A DNA stretch of 64,000 nucleotides from Folioceros fuciformis (GCA_049999805.1 JBNGIO010005951.1:132700-196699); one strand, 5' to 3'. Shown: positions 1-39,845, counted from the first letter of the stretch. Numbers and translations: made by a program. Notes: generated by a model from the letters alone, not told the origin.

Positions 1-2236
1 GAGCCTCACGAGCCTCCAAAGGTAGAGAATCCCTCACTTGCCTAAGAGACACTTGTAAAGGGAAAATGCCCTCCTCAATACCTGAAATAAAACTTTCAAG
101 AACAGGGGAATCTTGTAGCAAAAAACGAGAGGCCAAAATTGGAGCTGAGAGGGCCTAGCTGCCGAGAAAGGCAACTGGGGCAGAGGCCTCCATGACCAAA
201 AGACCAACCCCTCCAAAGGCGGCTGGCAAAGAAGCCTGCTTATGAGCGAAATCACCGACAGCACACTCGAAGGTGCCCGGACCTATGATGTTCCCAAGAG
301 CCTGCATAACTTGAATGTCAAACTTCCTGAGACTTGATAAGAAAAATGGAGAAGGCGCAACAATTTTAGTGAGGTAATTTGGTCGCCGTGCAAAACAAGA
401 AGAAAGGATACCAAACGCAATCTAAGGATTACCGATTTGTGAGAGGTCCATGATATGAGCCAAATCTTCATCCAACGCTTCATCTACAAACATATGAACA
501 AAATCAGGAGGTCCCACAGGCACACCCAAGACTCGTGAGGGGGTGATATCCCCCCCCCCCCCCCCCCCAAATATTGAAGGGGGGGAGTGATGCTTGAAGG
601 GGACCAAACCCTGCATTTCAATAGCTTGACCCTTGAAGAGCTCTAATAAGAAGAAATCAAATGCTTCTTTGACTGTGACTCTTGCCCTAGAATATGAGTG
701 TTATCAGCCACGGAAGCGAAAAGGCATTCCCGAAATGCTAAGGCAGTAGATAGAGGACAACGCACGAAAATGCGCCATTGCAAAAAGAGCACCCCCTAGT
801 GGATCCCCTTGCCTTGTGCCTGTTGCTAAATCAAAAACTAAGACCCGCTCAATAGTCGGGCCGTGTTGGTAGTAGAGCTTGGATGGCGAGCCATAGAAGG
901 AGCAAACAAAAGGGATAAGACTTGCCAATTGACCTCCTGCACTCTTGAGCTCCGAGAAGATGGCGACCCTACAGAGGGTGTTGAAAGCATTCTCAATATC
1001 AACCTGCAAAGCTACGCAATAAGGATGTAACTCAAGGGCCGCCTGGATTCCAAGAGCGGCAGATTCACACCCACCTGGGGTAGCAATCCCAAATTGGTGG
1101 GGTGTAAGATGCGCTTAGAAGTACTCCCGAAGTTGAATTGCGATACTTCGGCTGATAAGGCGCAAAAATACCTCCCCCACAGCAATAGGGCGCACTCTTC
1201 AGGTGGGCTTTTCCAATGCAAGTAGCCTACTAGCTGCCAAAACTCGAGAGATTCGATTGGGAACTTTGCCCTTGGCCACAGTAGCTACTAGTGTATAAAG
1301 CTCTGAAAAACCACTTGAGGGATTCTCAGGAGAAAAATAATCTCAAAAGTGGTCATAAATTGTGCCAGACAAACGCCATGAAGAAAGTCGTGGCGCAAAA
1401 GAGAGTGTATGAAAAAAAAACAACCCTATCCAAGCAAAAAGGCTCCTCGACCGTGTGGTCAAGAAGATCTTGCGGTATAGCTTCATGAGGTTCTGGATGA
1501 AGGGCACGAAGTGCAGAAATGGTGTCCTCAGTTGCAGATGCAGCTGGCTCTAGGCGCAATGCTCTAGTAGCCCGAACATATTCACCATCCCTGCCCAACA
1601 TGAGACACCACTTAAGACGTGCTTTAAATGGGTCATGGCATACCTTGTCAACCTTAGCTGACTCCAATCGAGATTTTGCTGCTGGTAGATCCTCCTCCTG
1701 AAGAGCTTGCCAATCTCCGGATTGAAAACGGCGAAGTCGAGAGGCCATCTCCCTATGACCTGACGGACCACCCCTAGAGCACCGAAGGCACCATCTAGGT
1801 AAGGAAAGGAACAAAATCCAAGCACTCTCATCCCTCGGGTCCCGAGCAAGGTGATCCAAGGGAAGACGATAAGCAAGGCGAATATCATCATGTAGGCGCC
1901 TGGGAGACGTCGGAAAAGGCGAGGACATGGAAAACGAGCATGGAGAAGAGCCAACAAGTGATCAGATTGCCCTGGAAGCCACAACCAAGCCTCCGAGGAT
2001 GACCCTAGAGGATTGGTAGCTGGTTCAGAGGAAGAAGCAAGTCGCACTTGTGCCACCCAAGTGGTCCTATTGAAGTCCTTATGCTTGTGACCAATATGGC
2101 ACTTCACCCCCTTGACCTCGGAGCAAAGTTGAGAACACACTTGGCAAGGGGTGTCCTTGACAGATAAAGGCTGGGTGTCACGCGCCATGTGATAGAGGCA
2201 TGTAGAAAGTCTTGTAAAATGATCAAAACCAAACAA
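1..2236 (-). mobile_element. Decayed non-LTR retrotransposon, CRE-like clade (C2H2 finger + reverse transcriptase), runs off the window edge
   Basis: Collinear broken ORFs on the minus strand: C2H2-like CQVCSQLCSEVKGVKCHIGHKH; AWILFLSLPRWCL..RGG..RLRRFQSGDW; RT motifs VDIENAFNTLCR, FYGSPSKL, TGTRQGDPLGGALFAMA; post-RT VLGVPVGPPDFV. Multiple frameshifts and stops. Confidence 0.85.
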
Positions 2237-2254
2237 TTGTACTCCTCATTGTAA

Positions 2255-2970
2255 CCCATAACCCTATAATGCCCTCCATATGCTCCACTCTAAGCCGTTC
2301 AACCCTAGACCCATTTTGCTCCACAATGTTTATAAAATGCTAAACCTACTTTTCTCCATCGTGTAACTAAACCCTAAACCTATTCAGCTCTGCCATGTGA
2401 CTAAACCCTAAACCCATTTTTGCTCCATAATGCTGATAAAACCCTAATCCATTTTTCTCCACCATGTCGCTACACCCTAAACCCACTGCACTCTGCCATG
2501 CAGCTAAACCCTAAACCTATTCTGCTCCATCATGTCGCTCAATCCTAAACCTATTTTTCTCCGCAATGCCTTTAAACCCTACATCCATTCTCCCCCATCA
2601 TGCCCTAAATCCATTCTGCTGTTGCCATGCTTGTAAACTGTAATCCCTTGTTCCTCTGCCATGCCACTAAACCCTAATCTCATTCTGCTATGCCATTTTA
2701 CCAAACTCATTCCACTTTGCCCTGCCGCTAAACCCTAAACCTTACTTGCTTTCTCCACTATGTCGGTATACCATTTTCATCCAGTATACCNNNNNNNNNN
2801 NNNNNNNNNNNNNNNNNNNNNNNNNNNNNNNNNNNNNNNNNNNNNNNNNNNNNNNNNNNNNNNNNNNNNNNNNNNNNNNNNNNNNNNNNNCGCTTTGCCT
2901 TGCCACTAAACCCTAAACCTTACTTTCTTGCTCCACCATGTCGGTATACCATTTTCATCCAGTATACCAT
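2255..2970 (+). repeat. Degenerate ~40-45 bp minisatellite carrying the plant telomere motif (TAAACCCTAAACC); spans a 100-N gap
   Basis: Recurrent 'ctaaaccctaaacc(c/t)att...ctcc/gccatg' units, for example near 2367, 2401, 2505, 2728 and 2906. Confidence 0.85.
2791..2890. other. Assembly gap (100 N)
   Basis: Run of N. Confidence 1.
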
Positions 2971-3087
2971 TCCTACAAGCAATTCTACACCACTCATATT
3001 GTTTTTATATTGCTCCTCTAATATACCATCACATCGCTCATTCTCCTCTGGATGTCTTGGGCCATGCTCTATAACACTCCTACGTAT

Positions 3088-3541
3088 ATGGCCACACCCT
3101 TCCACCGTAGTGCACCGCACCATACTGCACTGCACCATATTGCTCCACCATTCCACCCTAGGCCACACCGCTCCACCGTAGTGCACCATTCCGCTCTAGG
3201 CCACATTGTTCCATCGTAGTGCACCACACCATACTGCCCCACCGCTCTGCCCTAGGCCATACCGCTCCACCGTTCTGCCCTAGGCCACACCGCTCCACCG
3301 TAGTGCACCATTCCGCCCCAGGCCACATCGCTCCACCTTAGTGCACCACACCATACTGCCCCACCGCTCCACCCTAGGCCACACCTCTCCACCGTAGTGC
3401 ACCATTCTGCCCTAGGCCACACCACTCCACCGTAGTGCACCATTCCGCCCTAGGCCACATCACTTCACCGTAGTGCACCACACCATACTGCCCCACTGCT
3501 CCGCCCTAGGCCACACCGCTCCACCGTCCGCCCTAGGCCAC
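3088..3541 (+). repeat. GC-rich minisatellite, ~38 bp core with longer and shorter variants
   Basis: About 10 copies of 'ccctaggccacaccgctccaccgtagtgcaccattccg', some extended by 'caccatactgccccaccgctc'. Confidence 0.92.
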
Positions 3542-4524
3542 TAGAAAGTAGAGCGTGAACCATTATTAACTAATGAACCATCTATGAGTACGAAGTTTAG
3601 TGCCACAATACGACACCCTTTACTCTCTCATTGAATTCTTGGAACTCTTGGAACACTTGAAGAGATCAGGCCAAAGGGTGAGCTCCCAATTCTTGACAAA
3701 GTAAAATCAGCGTAGTATTAGTGAATCGTTTGGAGATTGTGGAATTTTGAGTTTTTCGTCTTGCTTGTACCAATAACTTGGTCATGTGGCATACGGCAAG
3801 ACTATGACTGGCTACAATGCTCCTCGTCTAAAACCCCCGTGGCTTTGCTTAGACCCTCTAAAACGTCCACGTAGTGAGACAACTTTGTAGGATTGGGTGA
3901 TACATTGCCCAAGAAGTGGGAGACACAGAACGCTTACTCTAGTTTCGGATGAGCTAGATTCTCCTCATAGTATGGATTTCCTTTAGTACCCTCCATCGCA
4001 TAAGCTCTCCAAGTATCATCTACAACCTTAGCTTGTTTCAACCATGCTTTTCAAACCCCCTCGCCCATGCTTGTTTGTAGCCACCTAAAGATGGATCTAA
4101 TGTAATGGAAGGGGATTGCATATTCTTTCCTAACCACCTCAACTTCCTACTTACAAAACTTGGCCATGTCGCACGAGTGCCCAATTTGAGACAACCCTTG
4201 TCTGCTAGTCCTGTTAAGAATTTAGAAGCAAAACATGCGGTGTGTAAGGCTTGGAATCCATATGATTAAATGTGTGCAGAGGGAACCTAGAACATCATTC
4301 ATGTAGATAGGCTTAGCAAGAATTATGAAGGCTTTGAACATCGTTCGAAATATTTTGGGTCTATTTGCTGACCCTTCTTTCCTTGCGTACATTACCCCAC
4401 TTCTCACCCTCAAAGTGCCTATTGTCCTCTAAGACTTGCTACCCCAAGATGAGCGATGAAGACCTTGCCCCATCACCCTTGCAACCTCTTCCCCCACAAC
4501 CATCTTGACCTTCTTGCCATTCAA

Positions 4525-4547
4525 ATATATATATATATATATATATA
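4525..4547. repeat. (AT)n microsatellite
   Basis: Uninterrupted ATATAT run. Confidence 0.9.
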
Positions 4548-5400
4548 TGATAGTTGTTGAGCAATTGCTTGTTATAGACTCGTATGCATTTGAATTATAT
4601 TGTTGGTGAACTAAAAGCTGCATGCTAGATTTTTGAAAGCTTAAGTCACAAAGGATATGGTGGCATGGACAACCCCCCCTTGCTAGGAATGTTCATATAT
4701 ATAAAGGCTCAAGCAAGAAGCTCTTGTTATGACTAGATGAATCCAGCAAGAGAGTCTCATTTTGCAACTAACCTCCCCAAACCAAGCATACTCTAAACAA
4801 ATGAGGAGAAACGTGAAGACCTATAGGATTGATGAATTGCCAAGTAGGTTCTCAAGTTGAAATGTTTTCTTCATAGACCCTATCTCCTAACCCATGTCCT
4901 TATTGGAAATAGATAAGTCATGATCCATATCGTTTTGCCTAATATTAAGCTTAGGCTAAATGGATGCATATTTATAAAAACTCTAGAATTAAGCATCTTG
5001 TACATAGCTATGTCCCTAGAGTTACTCCAAGGAAAAATGTTCTTTGAAGTTAGTAATTAAGTATACTATGATAAAAAATAATAAGTTCTAGTCCTATCCT
5101 AAAATGCTATAATAAAAGTGTGATGCAATTGAATGGCCATACATTGTATGGGACAAAGGGATTTCGGAGACTATTTTTATGTATAAAAAATGAGTTATGC
5201 TATATAGATGGAATAAAAAATCAAGGTATAAAATAGATCATATTTAAGACTCTCATGTCTTCATTTCATCAGACCTATAGCACTTGGCCACTTGCGAAGA
5301 CGCTAATTTACTTCCACTTTATCAGACTTCGTAGCTGAGAACATTTTCATTCCCAACATCTAGCTGCTTCCCAAACTTCACTCATCCGCATAGTAATTAC

Positions 5401-8400
5401 TTACAGAAACCAAAATGCTCCCGCTGCAACCAAAAGGAAGCCCTGGATCCCAGCCCTGCTCCGTGGGCTGCCGCTAACAATCTGAACAAGCAAGACACGT
5501 GACGAAGTTGCATTCCTAGGTACTTGGACGGATATTTGTCCATCGTTGTACCCAGTACCGTAGAATATAGTGGGACTGCTGCCATCTTCTCCGCTAACTC
5601 CAGCAATTGCATATGTGGTGTTCTTCACAGGTGGATGGAGATCCACAAACGAAACAACTGCGGTAACAGCATCATCAACAATACCAGATATAGTAAAATC
5701 ACAGACCTGATGGACGGCCACCAGGGCGTCAAACCAGTCCACTGTTGTCCACTGCAAGACATTCAGGGGAGCAAACATGGGGAAGCAAGCAACGGCGGCC
5801 CCTGCAGTGCCCGTCCCAGACAAGATGGAAATATCAAGTTGGAAATTGGCAACAGAGGAGGTCAAATTGTTGGTGAAGCTTGTTCCCAGATCCACACTGG
5901 CAGCAGCCAGGGAAAAAGATGGGCGAAATACATAGCTTGGCAAGTTGAGAGCAATGTCATTCAAGAGCATGTGAGCCAGGTAGAGGGGCATTCGATATGC
6001 CCGGCGTGCAAGGCTCTCTGCTGTCGGTGTACAGCTGGATTGTACGGCGGACAGGAATCCGTCCACTGCGTCAAAGAAACAGGGATTGTAGGGCTGTCCA
6101 GATGCTGCAGCTGCACTTAGATGGTGACCAGCAACTACCATGAGCTTGTCTTCAAAAATGCTGAAGGATGTATTCAAGCCCTGCGCACCTACGTTGCCAG
6201 GTGCTTTGAATATCTCCCCAAGAGCACATGCAAGCGCAATTGCAATGCTGGGCCCAGTCCCAGGGGTCGTCGTGTCACTCACATAGGGGGAAGGAAACTG
6301 CGAATCGGAGGCGGCAATCATCATCAGCATATCATTTACCAACGGAACTACGGAACTGTCGGCGAAGCATTCCGCTCCCTTGAATACGTATAACGAGCCA
6401 AAAACTTCCATGACTTTGAGGGCTTGGAAGTACTCTCCTTGCCCTTGAAGAGTTTGGAATATGTTATATAAAGTATGTTCATCCTGCAAGGAGGAAAACG
6501 TTGACTCTCCAGAAGAAGATACGGCAATGGGTGGAAGCTCAAACAAAGCTCCTTGTGGAGCATCACCTCCTGATATCAAACCTGAGGTGGGATTTGAAAT
6601 GTAAACTCTAAATGTCACATTCCCTGCTTTCACTGCGACATTTTCCACAGAGTTAGCGAGTGAAAGGGGCTGTACGACTGTTTCCATTCCTCCTTCAAGA
6701 ATGTATCTGAACTCGTACTTGAGCGCTCCTATGCCTTGGCCTGGAGTCCAATCATAAGCAATGAGGTTGTACAATGTCTGGCCAGCAATGTTAGATTCCG
6801 AATTTGCGCTCAAAATGACACTGCCACCGGTAGGGTCATGTACAGTGTCTACTGTTAAGTTAGCGCTTCCGGGGTGACCGAACTTATCAGATGCGTTGCA
6901 GGAAAACGTATAAGAGATTCCTCCTAAAAGAGTATTTGCTGGAATCAGCAGACGGTGGGACACAGCAAACACAGACTGGGAACTAACCAAGTCCCTCTGA
7001 TCCACGGGAGACCAGATTGACCATTTGTAATGATACAGACCGTCTGTGCATGACACCTTCAGCTGCTTTGATCGGTCAATTCCCTGGGCAACAACAGCCG
7101 CATTCTCAATCACCGCAGTGACGGTTGACAGGTGTGATCCCGCAGTCACAAGAACCCACGCCGTTACTCCAGTACGACCTGATATTAAGGGTTCTTTATC
7201 CACACTGACAGAAAAATTGTACGTCCCATCCGCAAGGTATCCACCAGGAATTGTAATTTTTTTACCAAATCCATTCCCAGAAGATGACTCATATAGGGGG
7301 GACGCATTTACGCCCAGGTCTGGATCACAAGACCAAGCATATCTGAACTGCAAACTTTGGCCGTTAAGGTCAACGGAATAATCTGGATCATACGCGTCTA
7401 CTTCCAACGTGGTGTTTTGAGATGAGTCTACCGTGCGGTTGCCACCAATTATCGCGACTGATAACGATGAAGATTCAGCTGCCAGAGCAACACCCGCCTC
7501 GGAAAAAGACATCGGGAAACCTTGCATCGAACATCTCACAGTAAAGTTGTACACATACCCAGCTTCCAAAAGCTCACCCCGAACACTCAGAACCCGTGCT
7601 TTCCACACGATTGAAGAGGAATCCAGTATGGGTCCGCCGGACTGTGACCACTCATATAGAAGAGAAGGCTTTGGAGCTGAAGGTAACGCTGGACCACAGC
7701 TACCGTTTGATGCTAGCACTGCCATGGAAGGGAGAGAAGCCACTGCCTCAATTTCAAAAAGCTGGCCACGAGTACCATAAAGGACGCCATCAGCGACAGG
7801 AATGGTTAGCAGTGGAACAGGCACATGCATCGTGCGTACTGTGATTGATCTCCTGCTGTGCATTCCAATAAAATTCATGACTGTCACAATAAACGTGTAT
7901 TTTTGCCCAGCTTGTAGCATGTTTGCACTCAGAACAGCTGTCATCGTAGATGACGGCACTTCATTGAGCGATTGAGCAATGGCAACAAGGACGTCTTGAT
8001 CTCCTGTTCCTTCAACAGAGTACTTAAATATCAAGGGTCGCCCACCAGAGCCGGATGAATCTGACGCATCCAACACAAGCGTATCACAAGGACTTATTGA
8101 AGTTGGTGCTATCAATCTTGCCTTAGGTGCTAATGGTGCATCAGGTGGCATGAGCACCACAGAGCCTGTCACAGGAAAGGAATTGGCCCCAGCACCAGAG
8201 ACGGAATTGTCCAATAGTCCAATAACATCAGGCGATTCAGCATCTGCTGGCAGGATTGAGGCATCGTGCCCCAGGAAAATAAGCAATGTCCTTGGGTCTT
8301 GGAATGTGCAGGATGGATTTGTCCCTAGCTTTAGCAGCAGTGAAATGTTGAACAATCTGCTGCATCCTGTTGAACTGAATTCCCTACTCTGAGAACCCCC

Positions 8401-11400
8401 ATCCGTGTCACTGTCGAACAAAATAGTAATGTGTGCTAAGTTGTCTGACAACTGGGCTGACAAAAGTTGAGGTGACGGAGCTGGCAGTACATCCACCGAG
8501 GTTTGAAACACCATGTCTCCCCACATCAGTGACATGTTTACCGTTCCTGGCATGGTAGGCAGGACAGACATCGAGAAAGAATGAAGGCCACAAGACTGCT
8601 GGCCAGCAGCGTCCCAAGAACACGCAGACGTCATTTCTACCAAATATGGCGGGCTTGTCATTATCTGTGGAATACTGTAGTTCACATTACCGAAACCGTC
8701 AAAGGCCGTGTATTGCAGCACGACCATTGTACCAGCTGTAATGCTGACTAACGGTAAAGTAGTCACCAACGAGGATGGTTCAATGGGACCTGCCAATACA
8801 GTGATAGTCTCTACCTTCGCCCAATCTGACTTCTGAAGGTTTCCTGTGATTTTCGAGGTGGCATTCGATGCCACAATGGTGTATGAGCCCACTATAGTAA
8901 GCGTGAAAGACACTAGTACGGCCGTGCTATTCACCTGGGGTGAAATTGATGCTCGAATTGAGGCGCTCGCATCAACTGGCTGTAGTTCAACACAGATATC
9001 GTCCCAAACAGCCGCTCCATCAAATGTATTCAAGTACGAGTCCTTCGGAATAAGCTCAAATCCACTTTCCACACCAGCATAGAAAATAGGCAACTTTGAT
9101 GGGAAGATTTCAAAACATGAAAAATCAAAAGCGGCAGGCTTGACGTGGAGAGGAACGGTCCGGGCGAAGGCTCCATTCACGGTGATACTCAACAAATAAT
9201 CACCTGACAAATAAGGGTAGATATGGAGCTCCGTCACGACACCAACACCGTACAGGGAAATGTAGGAATTAAAGAGAGCCTTGCTGGGAAGCAATTGCAA
9301 AGCCGCTGAAAATATGTCAGGAGAATTTAAGATATTGAAAATTTGTTTGTTGCCATAAGCATCGAATGCTTGTAACAGGAGTATTGTCTCCTCACCAGCC
9401 ACAAGTGCAGTACCGGGATCAAATGCATGCAGCCCATCAGAGGTGAGAATCTGTGTGTTCTGGGGGTATGAAGGGCCAGGCAACAGATTCACAACAAATC
9501 CACTGTTTTGAATAAACTGCACCCCATCAGTTACTTCAATAACATATCTCTTGCTTACGGTATCCGTGATTGTAAAACCATAAAGCCCACTGCTGGTAGG
9601 GGCCACAGATACTGGGACTCCAGAAACTGTTGCCTGAAACGTGAGAAGGCTTGGGTCAGGCGCGGGTATGTCCATACCATCCTTATCTCTGACCTGTAAA
9701 TTGATTGTTAAGTTCGAGCCAACTGTAGATCTGATAGGTTTGGAAGTGTGAATTGGTACTCCATACGAGTCCAAAGCTGCACAATTCTTCAGTGACCAGA
9801 ATCCAGGTCGAGCCTTGACTTTGACATACCTCACGGATCCTACTTTCAGCCCACGATAGAGAACTGTGATTGCCAGATCAACCGCTGGCCTCACAGGAAT
9901 GTATGTAAACATAACAGTTCCGTCTGGCAAGAAAAAGGGGGCTGGGCGAACAGGAACAACATTTATGGGGCTGAAGCTCAGGCTCCAACTTCCATGCAGA
10001 TGATTCGATATTAGGTTTCCATCTGAATCCCTCATGTGGATGTAGAAGGTGGCGGGCCAATTCACAATCCCGCCAGCATCAATCCCAGGCCCAAACAAGG
10101 CAAAATTAGGGACAAAAGGAAGTCCAGGCCCTACCACAGCAGAATATGGTGCTGAGCTACTGGAATTCAATAACATTTCATTCGAGATGTTCAACGAGAA
10201 GAGAAGAACACCAGGATGCTGAGTTAAAAAGCGTACTTCATAAAAAGTCCCTGTAAACGATAAGTTTGCTTCAGGGTACCATGCAAATGATGGGAAGGTG
10301 GTTGACATAAGGGTTACTAAAAACAGTGAGGTATCCAACACATCTGCCATAATCGCGTTCGAAAATTTGTCAAAGATCTGGATCTGAACTTTGCCCACTT
10401 CATGTGATACATATCCACCAGAATCAAATGTAACAATAGTTGTGAGAGCATTTGGTGGTCCAGGAAAAACTTCGACGTAGTCACGAAAAAACACTTGTCC
10501 CCCAAAATATGCCTGCACTGTGTAGTTGCCACTCGTCTTGACGGAGTACATGAACAAGTAAGTCCCGTCTTCATTGTCAACAAGTGTGATGGTGGAATTT
10601 ATATCATCGTTACTCACGGACACCAGAAAATTGAGGCCACCAACCCAAAGCTGATTGTCAAAAGAATCTCTGCTCACAACAACAACGTTTCCAACTGATC
10701 CGGCAACGAGGATGCGTTCCTTCAAGACGACTGTGCACTTTGAGATATCAGCAGGCCCAGGTATCACACGAAGCTTGGTGCTGAGTACAATTGACTCACC
10801 AAAGCGTACAGTGATACTCGTACAGTTCATATTCAAGACAGTACCTGCGTGCTGACACATATATACGTATTGGTAGACCCCATTCCCAAGGGGCCCCATT
10901 GTTGCTATGTCAGATTCACCGGGCGCATATTCTACATGTTTACTTATCTCAAACCAGTCTGTCACTGTGGGTCGAATATTTCCATACTTATCAAACGAAA
11001 CTAGTGTTATGCTGTGCATGTCTCCAGCCATACAGCTGCTAAACGAGCTAGGCCGTACGACACAGTGCTCTGCACTTACAGGCCCAGGGTTCACATGGAT
11101 GTGAAAGGGAGAGTTGAGGATACTTCCCATACCTCTCCGGACATGTACAAGTCCATAGCCAGCAAACATCGGAGTGTAGTAAACTTCATACTCAGTTCCT
11201 GTCCATTTGGGATACATGGATGGCGGTTGCAGATGAGAATCACCCTTGTCATTGAACATGTCCAGCACCACAGAGAAAGAATCTCCACCTGTAAAAATTC
11301 GGTTGCCAAACATGTCATATGGTTGTATTGTGAGCTTTACTGGCATCCCCGCATAGATAAGAGCACCCTCCCCAATTCCATCACCAGATGCAGTACAATA

Positions 11401-14400
11401 AGGGGGATACACAGGTGCTGGGGCAACTGTAAGATTTGGAAAGGATTTATACTCTGTTGAGTTAAACGCCACTTTAAGAGAATAAATGCCACTTTCTGCC
11501 ACGGTATAATTACAAGTCAAACCAGACGGTGAATACAGATAGCTGCATTTAACCTGGATGGGAACATTGCTTCTGCTCAAGACGGCTGTCACATTTGAAT
11601 TCAAAACATCCGTCTCTGAACGAATGAGATTTTGATACTCATCATAAAGCTGGACAATAAATGTAGCCTGCAATCCAGCAACTGCAGTTATTGCACCCTG
11701 ACCAATTACTTGTGTGTGATCTAAGAACGGCTCACCAGGGGATGTGGGCAGGGAAATCCTCGTGTTGATGGTCTCCAGCAGATACCCATCACTCCAGAAA
11801 AACTCAAAACTGTAGACACTACCTCCAAACGGTGATTGCAACGGGAAGTAGCTGAGCACCCACTTCTGATAAGGAACTTCCTTGTCAGTGACAGCGGAAA
11901 CCAGTGTTAGAGGAGTGAAGGTGGACATGCCATCTGGTAGAATAATTTGAGCCACGAAGAAGTCAGAAAGCTTGACTACATTATCTTGAAAATTGTCGTA
12001 TCCATCCAGTGGCTGCACTTCAATCACAACAGCATCTTTGCCCGTCCTGTATAAAGGATAGCTGCTAACCAAAGCTGCAGTTGTTTTGGCAATAATTGTT
12101 GGGCCTGACACAACCCTCAGTACATAGCCACCACCATTTCCTCCTAAGGGCATCTTCATTGGCCCCACGAGAATATTGAAGGAATACAACCCAGAACTGA
12201 AAGCTACCAGCTTGAGAGTGTATGTTCCATCGTTGTTGTCCCTCGAGATCAACTCAGCTGCAGTAACTCCGATGGTGCTGTTAACGATTACTAGGTTCAC
12301 ATAATTCGAAGTCCCAGAAGGGCTTTCAAAAATCTCCACCCCATTTGTATCAACAAGCCTAACTGTGATAGTAGCTGCAGCACCTGCAGCTATGATTCCT
12401 CCAAGATCTCCTGAAGCCAGACAATTACGGGGACTTGGATCGCCAACAGTAGGACGTACAGCCACCTGAAATGGACTGGACTGGATGGGGCTCCACATGT
12501 ATTGAATTGCAATAATCTGAGTCGAGACTTTTGAAGCTGTGTACATCAGCAGGCATCGCCCATTATAAGGAACTGCATTACGAAATGACATGCTGGGGCC
12601 CGCGATTACAGTGAAGCTTTCACATATACTCGGTGATAGTTCAGAGCTCACAAAGTTGTTGTAGCTGTCACGAGCTTCAAGAAAAATGGAGCTATTAGGA
12701 CACAAATAGTTGTTGCAAGCCAATGCAGAACGCATGCCTGGTCCGAAAGCTACACAATTGCTGGAAAGAATGGTCCCAGGTTCCACGGTCCCATAGAATG
12801 GACTACCAGACACTTTCTCCACAAGTGACGTGGTGGAATCTCTGTAACCAAGATCTAATATCAGCTGCCCACTTCTCAGAGGTTGGTAGAACAACCATAC
12901 ACGACCTTCTCCATCAACCGAGAAATTTTTACCAGTGACCACCTCCTCATCTGGAAGCTCCAAGAAGCTCGCCCCAGTCCACACATGGACATGAAAGTCC
13001 GCTGTGAGGTTGACCAGTAGATCAGCCGCATCATCCTGCCCCAAGTCTACAGGGTTGCCAAATTTGTCAGCGAATTGTACCAAAATAGAACTCAGCTGAC
13101 CAGCTACTGTTGCATTATACCCAAGTCCCAAACCTGTTGGGTTTAACCGCCGCAAGTCCGCAGGTCCCGGCATCACCTGATAGTTTGTAATAGTGACCCA
13201 TGGACCCCCCACGAGTGCACTGTTTATGAAAATTGACACATTGTAAAAGCCGCTTTTTAGCACACTGAAGTAGATGAAAAAAGTACCGTTGTAATTGTCA
13301 ACTATTAAAGGGGGAGAGGAGTAGTTCACAAATAGACCAGCGTCCTGGAAGAATTGCTCCATCTGAAGGAAATAGTCACAACTAGGAGAATCAAGCCAAC
13401 CTGCCGCGGATCCATTGGACAGAAAATAATCACTGCCCTGAAGATGCGCAGTGACGCTCAAGGTTGGCTCGAACGGGCCAGCATTGCCAAATATGTCCTT
13501 TGGAATCAATGTAATCATCCACATCAAGCTGTGGACATCAGACCAGCTCTCCGTTTGTTTAAGAACAGATTTTGCGACATTCACTGGACCTGGCGAGATC
13601 AGGAATCTGAAAGGGCTCCCAGATATTTCATGTAACAGTCCGTCTTCTCCCAACAGTCTCACTGACAAAAGATACCTTACTGGCCAGAAGGAGTCACTTC
13701 GGAGAAAGTTCGCAATGTTTGCTGAAAATGTTACATTGCATGTTCCATCTGAATTACAATCAGTCTTCATATCCACCGGCTTTACATAAGCACCTGTATT
13801 GATGTAAGGAGGAACTCCAGGAATAGGCGCAAATGAGGCATTGATGGTATCTACAACGGCATTGTCCTGTCTGTTCCCATACATATCCACAATGACAACC
13901 TTGAGAAGTCCCATGGTTCCTGCGGATACCCTAGCTTCTTCCAAACTCGTGTTGAGCTTACCAGTGGTGTTCGGGCCATAAAGAGCAAATGAAAGTGTGC
14001 TTGAAGAAGGAGCTGGAGATGCAGAGACAATGCAGGAGCTCTCAGGTATGTTCAAACCTTGAAACCCGATCTCACTAGTATAATTGCCATACTTGTAGAG
14101 AACATATGTTGCAACAATATGGCTACCGTCAAATGAAACATTTGCATAGACAGGGGGCAAGTCATTCATCCACAAAGAGACCATGAAGAGCCCTGAAAAG
14201 TCGTCAGTGCAGGTATTTCCCCACGAATCTTGGCAATCAATGAGCATGTTGCTTGTTGCCCCTGTTTTCGTTGTGAAGACAGTAGCAACCGGCCTGCAGT
14301 TCAGTCCTGCTGGCCGTCCAGATTTGACTGTAATATTTGCTGTAGAACGAAATCCAGCGCCAGTTGAGTCATACAAGTTAAAACTGATATAATAGATCCC

Positions 14401-17400
14401 TGTCTTGGTCAAGTTGTAACTCACTTCCACAGGGTGAGAAGACGAGTTGCAGTATGGTGGAGGAAATGAGCCACCACCACTACTTGCAACACTTGCAGAG
14501 CAATTAAGACCACTAGTTAATTCATTCCCAAACGCATCAACCGGGAATATGCGTATAATGCCCAAGTCCCCTGCTACCGTCCAATTATTGAAAGAAATGC
14601 GGCTGTTGCTCGTGATAGGAGCACCTGGGTGGAAGAGAACAATTTGATTTGCCCCAGAGATGAGTTCACCATTCAACAGCGCAGAAACATTGTACGTCCC
14701 AGCAAAATAGGAAATTATAGAGACCACAACTGAACCGTTTCCAGCAACAGATACATTGCCACGTATTTGCTCTCCAGTGCTCTTGTTGGCTACAATTTCA
14801 AACTGGTCAAGAGAGTAGGCATATTGTGGTCCATACACCTGCTGATTTGCATATATGTCCAGGGAGATGATAGCACTAGAATAGAGCAGTCCTACTGGAT
14901 ATGACGATGGAAAGGGAACCACCAGAGCACACATAGGAGCATATGTAACACCTGGTGCAATTTGAATCTGCCTGTCAACAACAGTCAATCCGTTACAGGT
15001 GACCGTCAGATTGTAGCTTCCAGCTTTGAAAATGCAATAGCGAACCACATAGTCTCCAGTTCCTGCATCCTCAATTGTGTTATTTGAAGTAGCGACAGGT
15101 GACATGCTAAGCACAAGATGCTCTCCGCCAGAGAACAGAGGAATGCCTTGGTTGTCTGCTGCAATAAGCGTAAAACTCTGTTCTTGGCCAGCATACGCAC
15201 CAAATAGACCAGGGCAGAAATAGGGTGTTGAGAGATCAGAACAAAGAACAAACTCCAAGGGGTCAAGTATCCGGCTAACAGATGCATCCACAACTGGCAC
15301 CACCAAGGGACTTCCATTTATGTCTGCGCCAAGCCAGGAGATATAGATCGTGTAGTTACCACTCACAGGTGCCTGATAGCTTATGACGTATTGTCCCATC
15401 ATGTAGTGTCTATCAGTAATAGAAATATTGCTGGTGCTGCACGCACCATTTTCACTACATATTGCTGCCCGAAAAGGCTCTCCAATGCTTCTCGGATCAC
15501 TCTTCGGATTTCCAAATTCATCACATGCATGTAAGTAGAACATGGCCCATTTATTGGTTGCGGTGCCGTTGAGACCCATACCTGACAAGTATGTGTTATG
15601 AACACTTAGACGCCCAGAACTTTGACTACTTCTAATGATATACACATGGTTCTGGGCGGTTACTGTGAGAATGACATTTCCAGAAACCTCGCTCCTGTAG
15701 CCAAACACGTATGCATCACCAATTAGATCAAGAAACACAGGAGATACCCAAAGGCTCCCTTCAGGCATTCCCGCATCAAAAGGTCTAACTATTCCTGAAA
15801 CTTGGAAAACCGACTTGTCGACATCATTCACATGCAGTCTGTTCCCATACGAATCCCTGGGAGTAATGGTAACGTTCACAGTTCTGTCAACCACACCTCC
15901 GATTGTTCCAGGACCTGAAAAGGAGCATTGCTTCACATCCAAAGGGCCTGGAGAAATCAGTATCTCTTTGCTTAGTTGCTGATGCCCTACAAAGAAGCTT
16001 ACCACATACATCAACGCTTTTGTGGCCCTATAGGTTATGTTGTAAAGTCCCGCTGAAAATTGGGCCACTTGGACATGTGCATGGTCATCACCCCGGGGTG
16101 AAAAGATCCTGAGGTAGTTCTCTACCTGAATGTCTGCATCTATTGTCGGGGCATTGCCATATTCATCTGACAGTTGCAACACAAACGAACTACTAACTCC
16201 CGCTTCAGTGTTTTGCAGACCTACAAATGAACAGTTGTTTGGCGCTGCTTGACCTCCAAACACATGCAGGTGATAGCCACCAAGGAGTAAGGATCCATTG
16301 ACAGAGACATTCACCTGCAAAATTCAAAACTGTTGACAGCATATTTTGCAAACAAACTTTGCAATCACATTCTCAGCCATATCTACCAGGGACTAGCACA
16401 TGCGTTCAACACCTACAATCAGGTGCAAGGCCTAATTGGAGCTGAACAACGTAAAAGTTTTTCACCACATCATACTTGGGAAACGTCTAGATGCATTATG
16501 GGCCACATTACGTTATGGGAGAGAAGGCCTTACTACCTGGTAGTTGTCAGCTTTAAAAATTCCAGTAATGACAGCTTCAAAATGTTCACCACTTGTAGAC
16601 ACAGCAGGATAGGTGAAACTGGACGAATCCTTAGAAACAATGACTTCCACCTGCAGGTTCCTAGATACAGCATTATTGTATGCATCTTTGAGGTAGACCT
16701 TCATCAGTGTGGAGCTACCCACTGTGAAGTTGCTGAAATGGTCCAAAAAAGAAGTATATGCAGAGGGCTCACTGGGGTTCACAACCAACGTGAACCCTGA
16801 ACCCCGAAGAGAGTTAAGAACAGAGGAACCGAAGTAGGCAAAAACTGTAAAGTTACCCGCCAAAGTTGCATTGAACGTGGCTAAGTACTTTCCAGGTACA
16901 GGATAGCCTAAGTTGTCAAGAAAGGCTGAAATATTTCCGAATATGGGTGGCGATAGGCTGTAGACACCCACAACCAGATTAATTGAGTCAGAGCCATCCT
17001 TAAAGGTGCTCGAAGCGGGATTTCCATACTCATCTACAAGGAATGCTTGATATGATATCGATTGCCCGGCAGTAATTCCGGCATACTTCACAGAAAGTGT
17101 TGATTTCAGGCCCACTGCCATCCCAGGAAGAACTTCAACTGCAAAAGGTGAATTTGGCAAAGGCTCGTCCAAAACAGTGACATAAACAGAGTAATTTCCG
17201 GGGACTGTGATGTTCATACTGAAGCTACAACCCACAGTGACTCGAAAATCTGTGCAGGTGAAGACAGATGCATTCACGAGTAAATCCCCCAAAGGGGCAA
17301 CTTGGATTGTAAGATTGTTAATGACTTGATAAATAGGATCTATGCTGACCAGGGAATAGAGATGCTCCCCCACAATCACTTTGCTAGAATTGTCCCAGGC

Positions 17401-18116
17401 ATCAGTTTCAAAAGCAAATTTCTTCACAGCAGTGGCAGCATCAACAGTAGTATTGAACCAGAACTCCCCTGCGTATATTGCTGTCCCAGAGATGGTCACG
17501 GACACGTAGTACAATCGCACTCTGATAGGCACAAACTGCACAGTATATATTCCTTGCCCTTGTGGAATTATTTTATAGGTGAGGGGATCCTCCCCATCCG
17601 TATACGAAGAGATATTGACCTGAAATGGACATGGATCATAGATTACAGTATCCACAATCCCATGTGAATCTTCAGCTGTTATGTTGAAGCTTGCTATCTC
17701 ACCCACGGTGTACGTATCAGAATAACCACTTGCAAAGCTATGGGAAGCAGAAAGAGCTCCTCCAACATTGAACATATACACATCACGACTGATAGGACTG
17801 CAAGTATCATCGGAGACACAGCTCAGTATATTGAATGAGTAAGCTCCAAACAGGCTCACATCCACCGATATAACATAAACCCCGGGCGTGTAGCCACTAG
17901 GCTGTGCCGGAAACGTAACATTCGTCGGGCTCACTCTAGCCACCAACTTCGCTCCAGACAATGGCATGCCATCCGTCAGGTTTACAGCAAAAATCGTCAC
18001 ACTAGCTCCGGATCCTGTGTCCCGTACGTAGACAGCGTACGACGCCCAGGGATCGGCAAATTGAAGCGAGTGCTCCAAGCGGTCTTGTCCTCGTAGATCC
18101 ACGTCGGCAGGAGAGC
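5401..18116 (-). CDS. Giant filamin/Ig-like-repeat + PKD/REJ-like surface protein (at least ~4,160 aa; 5' end unresolved, probably 18.2-18.9 kb)
   Basis: The 598-aa and 3639-aa ORFs are joined by a phase-0 GT-AG intron at 16536-16315 (ADNYQ|VNVSVNG). Repeated filamin motifs (F.I...D.YGN; G.Y.V.Y....G.Y...V; I.GSPF.V.V.PG). REJ-like region (LVLDASDSSGSGGRPL, LLYEWSQ, LEAGYVYNFTV, DAYDPD..FRYAWSC, PTGGSV, YEFRY). Many N-x-S/T sequons. Hydrophobic C-terminus. Confidence 0.9.
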
Positions 18117-19264
18117 CTGTAAAATGCATCGCACTACATCTCAGCTCAAAGCTCTCTCTCTGCATGAAAACAAAATCCGCCACAGCAAGCCATGACAACG
18201 GTGCTACTAACCATTGCTCACTGAAAAGAAGACCATCGCTAGCAACATCGCATAGCTCAGACTCGTGCTGCAAGCTCGCGTCCTTCTCCGGAGCTCCTGC
18301 GCAGTACACAACAGTCCACCAAACTCAATCTGGAGTCCCTCCAAGGGACAAGACCACCACACGGTCAACAGCGGAAGAGGAAAAATCAGGGACGGAAGGC
18401 ACCATTGCAAAAGAAAAGAATCGAAGCTCCTGCGACGAAAATACTTGCTCCCAGCAGTGCGCCCGGGAATCTAGCCCCCCGTATCCACCACAGTGTAGGT
18501 CATCATCCCTGCTGCTTCCGACTGTGTCCAAGAAATTACGAGGCAGTCATAGCCATAATGCGGTAGCAGGCCTATCTCTGGAAGAGGTTCCATGCATGGT
18601 AGCGCCAGCACAGGGCCAAGATCGCGCCTGTGGCTGCGCGCTGGCACCGGAACTGTTCTTGCGCGCTTCCAATGCTGCAACTTGCGAACAAAATTGTACT
18701 TGCAAAACCCGCATTTCTTGCACACCTTCAATGCTGCAACGAGCACAAGTGGAGCACGGAATACACGCTACTGATCCAAAATTTTGCGCTATCTGCAAGC
18801 CTGCTGAGCACAAGTCCGGGCTCATCCTGGCGCCGCGAAGAGGCGCGCCATCCACCGCCCCCCGCATGACGAGCAGATTTCGTATCTCAGTGCGCGGGAC
18901 AAATTTGCCGCGTCTGCTGGTGGCCGCAGCTGCAGAGCTCACGTCCCAAGGATCTCGAGAAGTGCGTCAGGAAGCGCTAGGCCGGCTGCTTGACGGGGCT
19001 TTATGAGCGATTCAGGGTTAAACTCCGCTCACAGGGAAAGAAAACACCTGTTACATGCACCGACGCTGTTGTATGTGAAGGTCTTTATAGGAAGGTCCGT
19101 ATTTGTGAACTCTCAGGACAGTACCTATCTACTGTTGTTACGTGAACACCCGACATCTGTGTACATACATATGTAACCCCAGACAGAGAGGAGTCACGGG
19201 CAAGGACCACAGCAACAACTGCTTCGATGTTGATCTGATCTGACGAGACCAGCACAGCGCGCAA

Positions 19265-20943
19265 ATGTCGGCATCTCCAGCCAAGCCAGAGCCAGCAAAG
19301 CAGCTGCTTCCTTTCCTTCAGCGGGCAGATGAGCTTCACAAGCATGATCTCCTGGTGGCCTACTTCTGTGAGTTGAATCCAGTCTCTGCGGCCCGAGATT
19401 TGTGTCCGTTGGGATCGACTCATCTTTCCCTGCGCTTTGCGTGCGTGTGACATGGTGTTGGGCAGGTCGGCTGTATGCTATGGAGCTCGGGCTGAAGATT
19501 CCGGTGAAAGAACGAACCAAGGCAACTAATAAGTTGCTGGAGTCTTTGATGAACCAGCTGGAGAAGGTGGGAGACATCGGTTGGGAGAGTTGTTGGTGTT
19601 TTTAATGGTGCAAAATGGGAATTGGATATGAGTGTAATTTGAGCGGTTGTGCAGGACAAGAAGGTGGTGAAAGTGAGCCCCGAGGACAACCTGTACATGG
19701 AAGGATTTGCCCTCAGCGTTTTCTCCAAGGCGGACAAGCAAGACAGAGCTGGTCGGGCTGACCTGTAGGTACCGCCGTTTAGAGTGGATTTTTTGGTAAA
19801 GCTGTGAAGCTTGACAAGAGCTTGGGCTTGCTGGGTATGAGGTGTTTGTGGCAGACTGTTACATGGTTGGAGTTGTGTTCAGGAATACAGCGAAGACGTT
19901 CTATGCAGCCAGTATCTTCTTTGACGTCCTGCATCAGTTTGGTGACCTCCAGCCTGATGTAAGTTCTTGGCGGGGCTCTGGCTAGTTTGTGTAGGGCAGT
20001 CTGGCTGTGGCCATTGGGTGTGTGCTTTCGTGACTGGTTTGTTGGAGCCGAGCTGGAATGATTTTTCGCCTGATTGCTCCAGATTGAGCAGAAGGCCAAG
20101 TACTCGGTTTGGAAGGCTGCCGATATCAGAAAGGCAGTGAGTGAGGGGCGGAAACCGACACCAGGTCCTCCAGGGGGAGACTTGGATCAATCCCAGAGTC
20201 CTCAACAAGTGAGTCCTCAACAAGGGCTTTCCTCTGATGACCAATATTCACGGCCTCAAGCCTCCCACGATTTCCAGCAGCACCGGCACCAAGAGAGCCC
20301 AGATTCAGGTTATCCTGCTCCTGGTCAAGGTTATGCATCGTCTCCTACAGCAAGTCCAGCCACTGGGTACGCCCCAGCTGCAGCACCAGCTTATGATGCA
20401 GGAGCAGCAGGGAGTGAATCACTACCGTATCCAAGTCATCATCCATCAGATGGTGCGGGAGGCCAAGGTCACAATCCTAGCCATCTCCATGCGCCTTATG
20501 CTCCATTCGATCAACCTCAAGCTCCTCCGGCACACATGCCCTTCTCTGGTTCAGCACCCCTGGATCCTCCCTACCATCCTAGCCCGGATCCACTACCCAC
20601 CCCCTACTCTCCTAGACCTGATCTTTACCCCAGAAATGATATCCACTCACCCAATGCTCCCATCTTCGGATCTGCTCCCTCGCAGCCTTACAGTGGTGGA
20701 TACCACGAACGTCCTCACCATGAGCGGGCTGCATCTGTACGTTCCTCTGATGAAGTAGCCCCCTACACTGCAGTGCTAGGAACTTCTGATGGCACCTATC
20801 AACCACCACCAGAAAAGGTTGCAGAGGCACACAAGGCCTCAAGGTACGCTGTGAGTGCCCTGGCATTTGATGATGTTCCCACAGCTCTATCTTACCTGAG
20901 GAGATCCCTTGAGTTGCTGACATCTCCATCTGGCACCATTTAG
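19265..20943 (+). CDS. LIP5: LIP5/VTA1, ESCRT regulator of Vps4/SKD1
   Basis: Exons 19265-19367, 19466-19566, 19655-19764, 19883-19958, 20083-20943. MIT-region sequence (LLPFLQRADEL..LVAYFCRLYAMELGL; KYSVWKAADIRKA), Pro-rich linker, VSL motif AHKASRYAVSALAFDDVPTAL. Confidence 0.95.
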
Positions 20944-27756: not shown

Positions 27757-30700
27757 CTAACCGGGAGATGCCTGAGCTCCTTCCCTTAAGATATCTGTTC
27801 CTCCCCCAATAAAATCACCCTCGTTGGGCACTCCAGCACCGTGTGAAACACCAAGCATTCCGTCGTCTAACCTCACATCGCCCAAGCTGGACTTCCCGTG
27901 AAAAGGGCTACTCTCACCTCCGTTGGACTTGCAACTTCTATCCAACGCTGTGGGGTAATCTGGAACAGCTCCACTCCCCTCGTCCCCGCACCTGTCACTA
28001 CTCACTGATGGTAAAACTCCAGTTGGCCGACAGTTGGATCCGTCATCCACATCCGAGAATGAAGCCTCATTGGCATCAGGGCTCTTCCTGCAGGCGTTGT
28101 CAGAGTCGCGATCATCAAAAGCTTCCGACACGCCGTCATCATTCCTGAGAGCCGCCTTCGACTTGCCCACTTCATCTTCCACTTCAAGCTGAGAACCTTC
28201 CGCTTCAGCTGTCCCAGCTTGATCTTGAGCTTCCTCAGATTTCAGCCTTTTCATCCAAGCATCATCACCATCACCATCATCACGGCCACGCTTAGGGCTT
28301 TGCGCACCTCCTCGAGGCCAGGGTATATCCTCAATGGCAGCTGCAATCGAAACTTTGTTCTCTGCCCGCTTCGAAGGATGACCCTTAATGTGATTGCTGT
28401 TTGGCAGCACAGGAATGTCCTCTTCCTCGTCTTCATAATCCACAAGTCCGAAGGAATTTCCCCTGCAGTTCAAAAGGCTGCTCAGTCCATGCTCAACACG
28501 ACCTGTGCTTGCCAAGAAGAGCTACACAAAATCAAATCAGATAACCTGAAAAGCACAGCTGCTAGGGCGTTGCCGTTCACAACCACTGCTGGGGAAGGGA
28601 ATGAAGGAGAAGCTCCTTTTGCAGACACGGACTCTTCCTCATCATCGCTGCACAATATGAAGAAAGTATGGTAAACACACTCGATTCCCCTAGATTCTGT
28701 AAAAATCTACCTTGTTCATCTTGATTGCCTTACCTATCTTCATTGAAATAATCTTCCTCATCCTTGTCAAGTGCTCTCTCATCTTTGCGATGTCTTGCAT
28801 CTACCACAGCATCGCCATCATTGCGAATTCGAGGGTGTGCGGAATCTGTACTGTCTCTCGTCGCTTGTGTATCTCGTGCACCAGGTCTCGATCCTTCCAT
28901 ATTCTGCGAATCCATCCACAAGTGAGTGAGTGCACTTTCGAAGATGTAGCTGGGAAGCAGCTTCCACGACATGACAATGAAAAGTAAATGAACCCGCATT
29001 ACCTGCTCATATTTCAATTTGAGAGATTTATACGTGTGAACATACTCAATTTTCTCAAGCTTGTCGCCAAAAGTTTCAACGAAATGTGCGATCAAATTGC
29101 TCATGTTCTCCTGCAGAGTTCGGAGGCATGAGGAGACCAGGTGATCAAATCAGACCAAAAAAGATAAAAGCTTCAAACGGTACCTTCCGGATGAAGTCTA
29201 TGAGCTCCAACACAGCTGAGTTTAACAGGTTATAGCGCCTCCCATTTGCCAAAAACGCCTGAATTACAGGCTCAAACAAATTGTTCTTTACAAGGTAGCG
29301 GGAATAGAAATCCTCCTGCATCGAGAGAAAGATAAGTAAACCCAAACATTTTAGGCATTTCCAAAACGTTGCACGGGAGGTCTTGACAGAAGGAGGACCT
29401 TCAACCCGACACAGGTCCGAATAAACCGCACTGCAGCCACAACAAGATACTTCTCCTTACAACGGGTGAGCCGCAGAATTTTTTCAACAACATTATTACG
29501 CATTACGTAGTACCTGCAAAAGCACAGCCACAGCAAAATAAGATCGCGAGTAGAACCGACTACACCATAGCCATCAAGAACCAAATAACATTGCAAATCA
29601 TGCGATAACCCCATCGACAGCCAGAAGACCGAGGACTTGAGTAATTACTTGATTTTGAAGCCATGGTGCTGTACACAGAAGCACAGAAGCTCACAAATGT
29701 TAGCTAAGGTCTCTGGCGTGACAGGACCCTGTTTTCCTGCCACAGCAAAGCTTGAAAGTTGCTTGGACTTCTCTCTGTTTCCCTTCTGTAGACATCCTGC
29801 CGTTAGAGCCTCAAGAAGCTGGTCCATGTACTTTTCATAAAACACGTTTTTCACATCAAGGAAGGTGTCTCTTTCTGCATTTTGCTGCAATTTCACAACA
29901 GAAGACCTTTCAGGGAATTGGTCCATGCAACCCACAGAATTGCAAGATAGTTAGAGTCGTCTGCCTAAAATCACGCATCCATAACATCCATCAGCTATCA
30001 AGAGGGCCAAAGAAGGAAACAAAGAAAACGAAAACCCAATGATGCTGTACAAGACAGGGAGCCCATACCGATTCCTTAGTCTCAGAGTCCAACAGCATGC
30101 GCATCACTTCAAGAAGTTGGGCTTGAAGGCCACCTTCACCATGGGTTAGCATACCCTTCACCTGCAAGGCACAGCAATCATCCATCCTGAGGAAGGTTCT
30201 GGAAAAGGTTGCAAACAATCTTCAAGAGAACAGGTCCACTGATGGACACCAGAGGTTGTTTCCTGATGAAACCATGGAAAAGAAGATGCAAAGACAGTAC
30301 CAAAAGACTGAAGAGCTGATTGTCAGGTTGCTCCACCAGGAAAACTCGGAGCAGTATTGGCTCGTGACTCAACACGACAATTAAGATGTCACTTCTGCGC
30401 AAGGTACAAAGGACTACATCGGTTGGCACTGAAAATCTGAACCACAGTTCCCAGCCCACATTTATTGCCACTAATTTAGGTGGACTGAAGAAAACACATA
30501 CCCGATTAGACGGACAGCTTGGTCAGAGCTCTGAAGAGCATTGGTAACCGTGTCAAATAAACCTTTCTGGACTAGAGTACTGAAAAACAATGACAGACGT
30601 CAAGCAGAAGTACAGCCTCTTCTTCAGTCATCGCAGATAGACTACTAAAGAAGAACTCCCAGGGCATCATCTCACACCACATGCTGCACTAGTAAACATG

Positions 30701-39436: not shown

Positions 39437-39845
39437 GGCTCCTAAGAGTCAGTGGCTAGAATGCAATGCGTCTCGTTTCTACGACGAGACGACCATAGCA
39501 CAACCGCAGTTGCAACAGTGCACCCTCATAAACTGCACAGGTGTCCTTTAACTGACACAGGAAACAATGCCGGAGGGACAAGAACGAAGTCCAAATCCCG
39601 GCAACTGCTCTACAGTACCTAGCCCCATGTACGTACCTTACTCCACGTTGGCAAAATGTACAGCGACCCCAGAGGCACAATGTATGTAGTCAGTCCCTCT
39701 AGTCACAATGTTCAGCTGAAACACGAAAACAAAGCGACAGCATCACATCAGGGTGACGTGGAGCAATCGGATAACGGCAGTCGGCTGGCACAGTAACAAG
39801 ACGTGAACTGAAGCCCGAAGTGACTTCAAAGCTGGAGGATGCGAG

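Follow-up and report, generated by a model that had tools for sequence, protein, structure and literature searches.

What does a plant do with a secreted protein of more than 4,000 residues that is built from filamin-type immunoglobulin (Ig) repeats and a REJ module? The question is raised by a stretch of 64,000 nucleotides from Folioceros fuciformis (GCA_049999805.1 JBNGIO010005951.1:132700-196699), referred to here at its full length as the window. On its minus strand the window carries a four-exon gene (ATG 18405–18403, stop 5403–5401) whose coding sequence of 12,582 nt, translated from the joined exons, corresponds to 4,193 amino acids. It is a real, transcribed gene, and its product, as judged by sequence comparison, is the land-plant form of an old filamin-REJ family, conserved across green algae as well as land plants. 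As to function, we favour, at somewhat better than even chances, a lipid-anchored extracellular rod for adhesion or tethering. An initial annotation, made from the sequence, had put forward gamete recognition or adhesion.

Modules and family of the giant protein

By far the longest part of the protein is an array of Ig repeats. A hidden Markov model (HMM) built from the protein's own repeats gave 28 matches between residues 62 and 3045 (21 with an i-E < 0.01) with a period of about 105 aa, which agrees with the roughly 30 filamin/Ig-like repeats of the initial annotation. The expected Filamin profile matches were also obtained: Pfam Filamin is found on the large exon with E = 8.5e-72 and on exon 3 with 4.6e-14, and when the repeat region was scanned in 8 pieces it was reported in 7/8 and exceeded the Pfam cut-off in 6/8. 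Ig_GEX2_N was above its cut-off in 2/8 of these pieces. The complete Pfam set is Filamin, Ig_GEX2_N, REJ, and Invasin_D3 for the large exon and Filamin and Ig_GEX2_N for exon 3. The repeats are only distantly similar to each other (mean identity of repeat pairs 20.4%, maximum 34%), and neither tandem repeats at the DNA level nor Rfam families were found. With identities of about 20% and no tandem repeat in the DNA, the array must be considered ancient and not an assembly artefact.

In repeat type, in Pfam Filamin, and in the nearest PDB structures by sequence (Dictyostelium gelation factor, filamins B and C) the protein resembles the filamins and the gelation factor (ABP-120) of Dictyostelium. 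A cytoskeletal filamin was considered and rejected: Pfam reports no calponin-homology actin-binding domain, the protein starts in a signal-peptide-like manner, and it has an excess of N-glycosylation sequons.

The repeats are followed by the REJ-like block that had been placed at about 8130–6500. Pfam REJ (PF02010) matches at 7590–6703 with 75 bits (E = 5.9e-21, cut-off 25 bits), and the block as a whole extends from 8076 to 6517. AlphaFold2, run on the C-terminal 891 aa with a 21-sequence alignment (mean pLDDT, the predicted local distance difference test, 69.7), gives a beta-rich structure for query residues 1–520, the REJ region, mostly with a pLDDT of 80–93. With the 891-aa model as query, Foldseek listed at least 500 PDB matches, headed by the multi-domain Ig/FN3 ectodomains of contactins, Robo2, cadherins, and titin, and a PDB profile search matched titin, the IL-23 receptor (IL-23R), and the PKD domains of KIAA0319L. 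Together, the model and these matches indicate that the REJ block is probably a further string of beta-sandwiches. A PDB sequence search with the same 891 aa gave one match at chance level.

For the segment behind the REJ block a helical and then a beta-rich part had been proposed. The helices held up (6498–5956, pLDDT about 70–88) and have phmmer matches that can be aligned in Marchantia paleacea P0005 and in metagenome plant proteins; the strands were predicted weakly, with a pLDDT < 40. The terminal helix of the AlphaFold2 model coincides with the hydrophobic tail.

The order of the parts recalls the polycystin-1 family (PKD1, PKDREJ, sea-urchin SpREJ1-10, and Ectocarpus Esi0130_0068), in which a REJ module likewise follows Ig-like repeats within a large glycosylated ectodomain. 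The window protein differs from this family in that its repeats are of the filamin type and not of the PKD type. No GPS motif, PLAT domain, or internal membrane helices were found in the window protein by Pfam, hydropathy, and hhalign. The protein was not assigned to the polycystins, which have a PLAT domain and 1–11 membrane helices. The 11-helix block is also absent from SpREJ1 and SpREJ2, which shows that a REJ protein may have few membrane helices and may serve as a sperm receptor (PMC1934368).

The likeness nevertheless leads to a functional alternative, namely that the protein is a sensor of the polycystin-1 type: the module behind REJ would be an autocleaving GAIN domain, and the shed rod, sitting on its stub, would report mechanical load on the wall or on a contact. 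Consistent with this are the sequence of Ig-like repeats, REJ, helices, strands, and anchor, as in the polycystin-1 ectodomain (PMC1934368), the predicted succession of helices and strands, and the fact that in Phytophthora homologues a GPS lies about 420 residues past REJ, similar to the distance between REJ and tail here. But in the last 449 residues Pfam, GPS and GAIN included, reports no family at E ≤ 10, and hhalign of the plant post-REJ profile with the oomycete post-REJ/GPS region yields a probability of 0.06%. The GAIN idea of the initial annotation thus finds no sequence support. Also, no GAIN chain occurs among the 49 Foldseek matches listed, which are dominated by the REJ part, membrane helices and PLAT are lacking, and the pLDDT of the beta part is below 40. 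We therefore regard such a sensor as very unlikely.

The family itself is defined by homologues with the same succession of parts. The 'filamin' of Klebsormidium nitens (P0003, 3,931 aa) is collinear with the window protein (BLASTP, 29% identity over 3,373 columns, E = 0) and has Filamin, Ig_GEX2_N, and REJ as its Pfam set. These three are also found in Mesotaenium endlicherianum ME000070S09146 and in the environmental protein P0031 (4,586 aa), and Filamin plus REJ in Symbiochloris irregularis KAK9787018.1 and in the environmental protein P0021 (3,728 aa). Filamin repeats and then REJ near the C-terminus are, by Pfam, common to the window protein, P0003, P0008, P0009, P0021, and P0031. A word-indexed search with the REJ end returned a protein from K. 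nitens and one from Phytophthora capsici. The relatives from Klebsormidium, Mesotaenium, Symbiochloris, and Marchantia are uncharacterised database entries.

Among land plants, Marchantia paleacea KAG6557914.1 (P0005; 33% identity, E = 6e-112), a partial model of 1,190 aa, has the REJ, helical, and beta modules in common with the window protein, and the metagenome loci L001–L005 encode a plant orthologue that is collinear with residues 2091–4140. In two of these loci (L002 and L005, about 300–11000) the orthologue has at least four introns in its REJ and C-terminal part, and the large exon starts later; since the window gene keeps this part within one 10.9-kb exon, intron content differs strongly between the lineages. 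Similarity to Klebsormidium could not be detected for the last 199 residues. A word-indexed search of shorter proteins found no homologue, which is uninformative since the Marchantia protein exists.

An exhaustive HMMER search with the last 891 residues against 1.84 billion representatives gave 99 matches at E ≤ 1e-3, 37 of them at ≤ 1e-10 and 3 at ≤ 1e-30. Thirty of the 99 were looked up, and for four of these an organism is named: Marchantia paleacea, Symbiochloris irregularis, Mesotaenium endlicherianum, and Phytophthora capsici. Full-length orthologues across angiosperms, which according to the initial annotation would speak against its proposal, were not encountered among these four, none of which is from an angiosperm. 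It should be noted that the list missed the Klebsormidium protein; absence from it is therefore weak evidence, and a loss from seed plants is not claimed.

In the literature no paper on a plant filamin-REJ protein was found in a search that covered texts other than supplementary tables, and the main text of a paper on the Marchantia cell-wall proteome does not mention filamin, REJ, or PKD. The modules as such are familiar, their combination is conserved yet unstudied, and in this lineage the anchor has probably changed. With 4,193 aa the protein is likely to be among the largest secreted proteins of a land plant.

Gene model, transcription, and constraint

A spliced open reading frame of at least about 4,160 aa spanning 5401–18116 had been proposed initially. 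The length is borne out by the four-exon model, and the limit at 18116 coincides with the 5′ boundary of exon 3, whereas two small exons at the 5′ end had been missed, the start codon being located at 18405–18403. The two stop-free frames on the minus strand extend over 5401–16323 (3,640 codons) and 16513–18324 (603 codons). Upstream of the ATG the first in-frame stop is reached after 48 codons, with no other in-frame ATG in between. Reading through intron 3 leads to many stops, and its removal joins the two frames within a repeat.

The model was compared with contigs from four public sequencing runs of four studies (X1–X4). The gene is covered by contigs in 4/4 of the runs examined. In all four runs contigs span the three GT..AG introns of a neighbouring gene on the plus strand, from which it follows that they derive from spliced RNA; these splice joints are what the RNA origin was judged from. 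X1 does not differ from the window, for which it may have been the source sample; X2–X4, with differences of roughly 6–10% per piece, are from other organisms. Those parts of 1–5163 that lack contig cover are uninformative.

At the 5′ end, the contigs of X3 and X4 have loose ends at 18275 in which, on the reverse complement, the ATG is directly joined to the codons of exon 2 (MELRRR). The exon 1/exon 2 junction is thus kept in the relatives. At the 3′ end, an X1 contig covers 5164–11365 with 0 differences and an X4 contig 5394–11884, both with no gap that would mark an intron; the X2 and X4 contigs extend 108 and 196 letters beyond 5394 with sequence resembling the flank in the window. Since the contigs of X1, X2, and X4 pass the stop codon unspliced, the stop is used and the 3′ untranslated region (UTR) has a length of about 200–240 nt. 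Splicing from a GTAAGT overlapping the stop codon was considered and ruled out because these contigs run straight across it.

The 40 listed differences out of 1,374, all of which fall within 5425–5830, are distributed over third, first, and second codon positions as 26, 10, and 4 (binomial p = 4e-5). The third-position excess fits purifying selection on the encoded sequence.

These data bear on the possibility that the gene is not a working one, but a pseudogene in decay, a chimera produced by the assembly, or contamination. It could be suspected from intron 3, which is seen only unspliced, and from a retroelement-like open reading frame, an N gap, and repeats just downstream. A frame that stays open for 3,640 codons, the finding of spliced contigs in more than one organism, the excess of third-position differences, and collinear homologues make it extremely improbable.

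Protein ends and possible function

The true first exons encode a signal-peptide-like start, the lack of which would have spoken against the initial annotation: an Arg-rich beginning is followed by a hydrophobic core of 14 residues and by small residues at −3/−1 before the likely cleavage site (hydropathy of residues 9–27, 1.68). N-glycosylation sequons, described beforehand as abundant, number 79 versus 35.9 ± 5.3 expected from 500 shuffles and are thus about twice as frequent as expected. The product is, by these features, a predicted secreted and glycosylated protein.

The hydrophobic tail of the initial annotation is likewise present, the final 12 residues having a mean Kyte-Doolittle value of 2.34. 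The relatives X2 and X4 have the same stop and two extra residues just ahead of the hydrophobic stretch. A hydropathy scan of the whole protein revealed no membrane-helix-like 19-residue windows besides the N-terminal signal and the C-terminal end. As a membrane helix the tail was rejected, since it is too short (12–13 residues) and has no cytosolic extension. Small residues (S-G-S), a polar spacer, and a short hydrophobic end with nothing thereafter is instead the layout of a signal for attachment of glycosylphosphatidylinositol (GPI). In this respect the protein departs from its algal relatives. Of the two algal members whose ends were read, Klebsormidium has a Pro-rich stalk leading into a membrane helix with a short basic tail, and Mesotaenium has a membrane helix and a tail; the window protein has neither the membrane helix nor the basic cytosolic tail.

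If the C-terminus is a GPI-attachment signal, the mature protein would be a rod held by a lipid at the outside of the plasma membrane. At about 4 nm per Ig domain, the rod, when extended, would measure of the order of 100 nm. Binding of a partner, be it on a second cell, in the wall, or in the matrix, would fall to its distal Ig domains, with the REJ, helical, and beta modules as the base next to the membrane. With no part of the protein in the cytoplasm, a co-receptor would be required for any signalling. As a general wall-facing tether it would represent a new class of plant GPI-anchored proteins.

Several points weigh against such a lipid-anchored adhesion or tether rod. In the Marchantia model and the metagenome orthologue the readable open frames have no hydrophobic end, so that the tail, GPI-like by its sequence features, may be lineage-specific. 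The AlphaFold2 model has a pLDDT < 40 over the last 185 residues (query 707–891). The only contigs that cross intron 3, those of X3 and X4, are both unspliced there, its removal thus being deduced and not seen; the X4 contig has 139 other letters at this intron and the X3 contig enters unlike sequence. Retention of intron 3, if this were the mature form, would truncate the protein. And finally, a walled cell offers the rod no obvious partner cell, for which reason a passive coat or the sensing of the wall is equally compatible with the anatomy.

A more specific proposal is that of a gamete-recognition or sperm-surface adhesin on spermatozoids or eggs, mediating species-specific attachment as do GEX2/FUS1 and SpREJ1. 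GEX2 (Arabidopsis sperm) and FUS1 (Chlamydomonas plus gametes) are also secreted proteins with filamin/invasin-type Ig-like domains, and the window protein matches Filamin, Ig_GEX2_N, and Invasin_D3. GEX2 and FUS1 can be modelled on gelation factor 1WLH and invasin templates, both of which are also matched by the window protein (bioRxiv 10.1101/2021.09.03.458930), REJ proteins act in sea-urchin gametes (PMC1934368), and the Ectocarpus REJ protein is expressed in male gametes (PMC4700764). The ectodomain of GEX2/FUS1, however, is described as being made up of 7 Ig-like domains and nothing else, with one membrane helix after it (PMC12069490; bioRxiv 10.1101/2021.09.03.458930). The window protein is different in having approximately 28 repeats and, in addition, the REJ, helical, and beta modules, and membership in the FUS1/GEX2 family was rejected for lack of the 7-Ig ectodomain and of the single-pass helix.

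The distribution of the homologues can be read both ways with respect to a gamete adhesin. The named land-plant homologue is from a liverwort, and the four organism-named proteins of the 30 looked up include none from an angiosperm; but an absence from seed plants would rest on 30 of 99 matches in a list in which the Klebsormidium protein is missing, and homologues of the same architecture are present in Klebsormidium and Mesotaenium. Flagellated gametes are not known from Mesotaenium, nor has sex been described for Klebsormidium. By analogy with GEX2/FUS1 and SpREJ1 a function in gametes is conceivable, but we consider it unlikely.

The protein might also be a passive surface coat or spacer, a glycosylated mucin-like glycocalyx or wall-associated layer with no specific partner. 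The comparison here is with FMG1A/B of Chlamydomonas, made by description and concerning the mode of working only: as given in the accessible part of the source, FMG1 is a giant membrane-held chain of about 34 low-identity Ig-like repeats that is heavily N-glycosylated, and FMG1B forms the ciliary coat (PMC12021028). The enrichment in sequons and the long chain of repeats similar in fold and diverged in sequence would suit such a role. But the same part of the source describes for FMG1 a Cys-rich domain, a disordered linker, and a multi-helix membrane domain and does not report Filamin or REJ (PMC12021028), and the conservation of the REJ, helical, and beta modules among land plants hints at a role beyond that of a spacer. 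A passive coat seems unlikely to us, slightly more so than a gamete adhesin.

A further-reaching version of the adhesion rod, which we put forward as speculation and hold to be improbable, is that an ancestral streptophyte molecule for cell–cell recognition became a GPI-anchored sperm or egg receptor in land plants with swimming sperm, in which the Ig rod of GEX2/FUS1 would be combined with the REJ base of the sperm receptors of animals and brown algae, and that it was lost when seed plants gave up motile sperm. To our knowledge, REJ modules are found almost only in animal polycystins and sperm receptors, and the green lineage has no conserved gamete adhesion proteins other than Ig rods of the GEX2/FUS1 type. 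If the protein were a true gamete or cell-adhesion receptor, it would provide a handle on cell-surface recognition in non-seed plants, and the plan of an ectodomain with Ig repeats and then REJ would be far older than animals.

Coordinates and neighbouring features

Table 1. Features of the giant gene and of its predicted product in the window (all on the minus strand).
Feature	Position	Strand	Evidence and remarks
Start codon = last three bases of exon 1	18403..18405	-	X1 contig joint and X3/X4 loose ends; 5′ UTR further upstream
Intron 1 (106 nt, GT..AG)	18297..18402	-	Joint 18295/18402 in 1 contig of X1
Exon 2 (85 nt), signal-peptide-like segment	18212..18296	-	Sequence and translation
Intron 2 (95 nt, GT..AG)	18117..18211	-	Joint 18115/18211 in one contig each of X3 and X4
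Exon 3 (1,580 nt), first filamin-type Ig repeats	16537..18116	-	Open frame; Pfam Filamin 54.1 bits, Ig_GEX2_N 36.5 bits
Intron 3 (222 nt, GT..AG)	16315..16536	-	Deduced from the frame
Exon 4 (10,914 nt including stop TAA)	5401..16314	-	Open frame; most of the Ig rod, REJ, helical and beta modules, hydrophobic tail
3′ UTR (about 200–240 nt; ~237 nt in X1)	5164..5400	-	X1 contig unspliced through the stop to 5164
About 28 diverged filamin-type Ig repeats	8848..18021	-	Residues 62–3045, period about 105 aa; intron 3 lies inside the span
Best Pfam Ig_GEX2_N match	11092..11355	-	E = 1.1e-27, 96.6 bits versus cut-off 27; 46.5 bits in the piece scan
REJ module, predicted beta-sandwich string	6517..8076	-	Pfam REJ match proper 7590–6703
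Predicted helical bundle	5956..6498	-	AlphaFold2 residues 527–707, pLDDT about 70–88; kept in land-plant orthologues
Beta-rich C-terminal segment	5476..5955	-	AlphaFold2 strands, pLDDT < 40; common to Marchantia and metagenome plant up to the last strand
GPI-attachment-like signal	5404..5475	-	S-G-S small residues, short polar spacer, 12–13-residue hydrophobic end, no cytosolic tail

Head to head with the giant gene lies a Vta1/LIP5-like gene (19040–20940, plus strand) with Vta1_C in its last exon. Contigs of all four runs bear out its three introns, and the first contig-covered base of this neighbour lies only about 635 bp from the ATG of the giant gene. Farther away, at 35717–39448 on the minus strand, an intronless gene of 1,244 codons encodes a PLS-class PPR protein with a C-terminal E motif (PPR_2 1.6e-140, E_motif 9e-14). 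Its best identities are 45–49% with Diphasiastrum complanatum (a lycophyte) versus 34–43% with ferns, Ginkgo, and Cryptomeria. A PPR gene of this class indicates land-plant DNA, whereas the identities are no more than suggestive as to the lineage; the flagellated sperm assumed in the initial annotation are plausible.

Four further open frames of 254–401 codons (43408–44466, plus strand; 55802–56821, 58009–59211, and 27760–28521, minus strand) have no Pfam match at E ≤ 0.001. The same holds for the open reading frames at 700–2250 (minus strand) and 2791–2890, which by eye resemble a reverse-transcriptase/retroelement fragment. These are followed by an assembly gap of 100 N and by His/Pro/Trp-rich low-complexity repeats to about 3550, and at 4514–4556, downstream of the giant gene, there is an (AT)n microsatellite.

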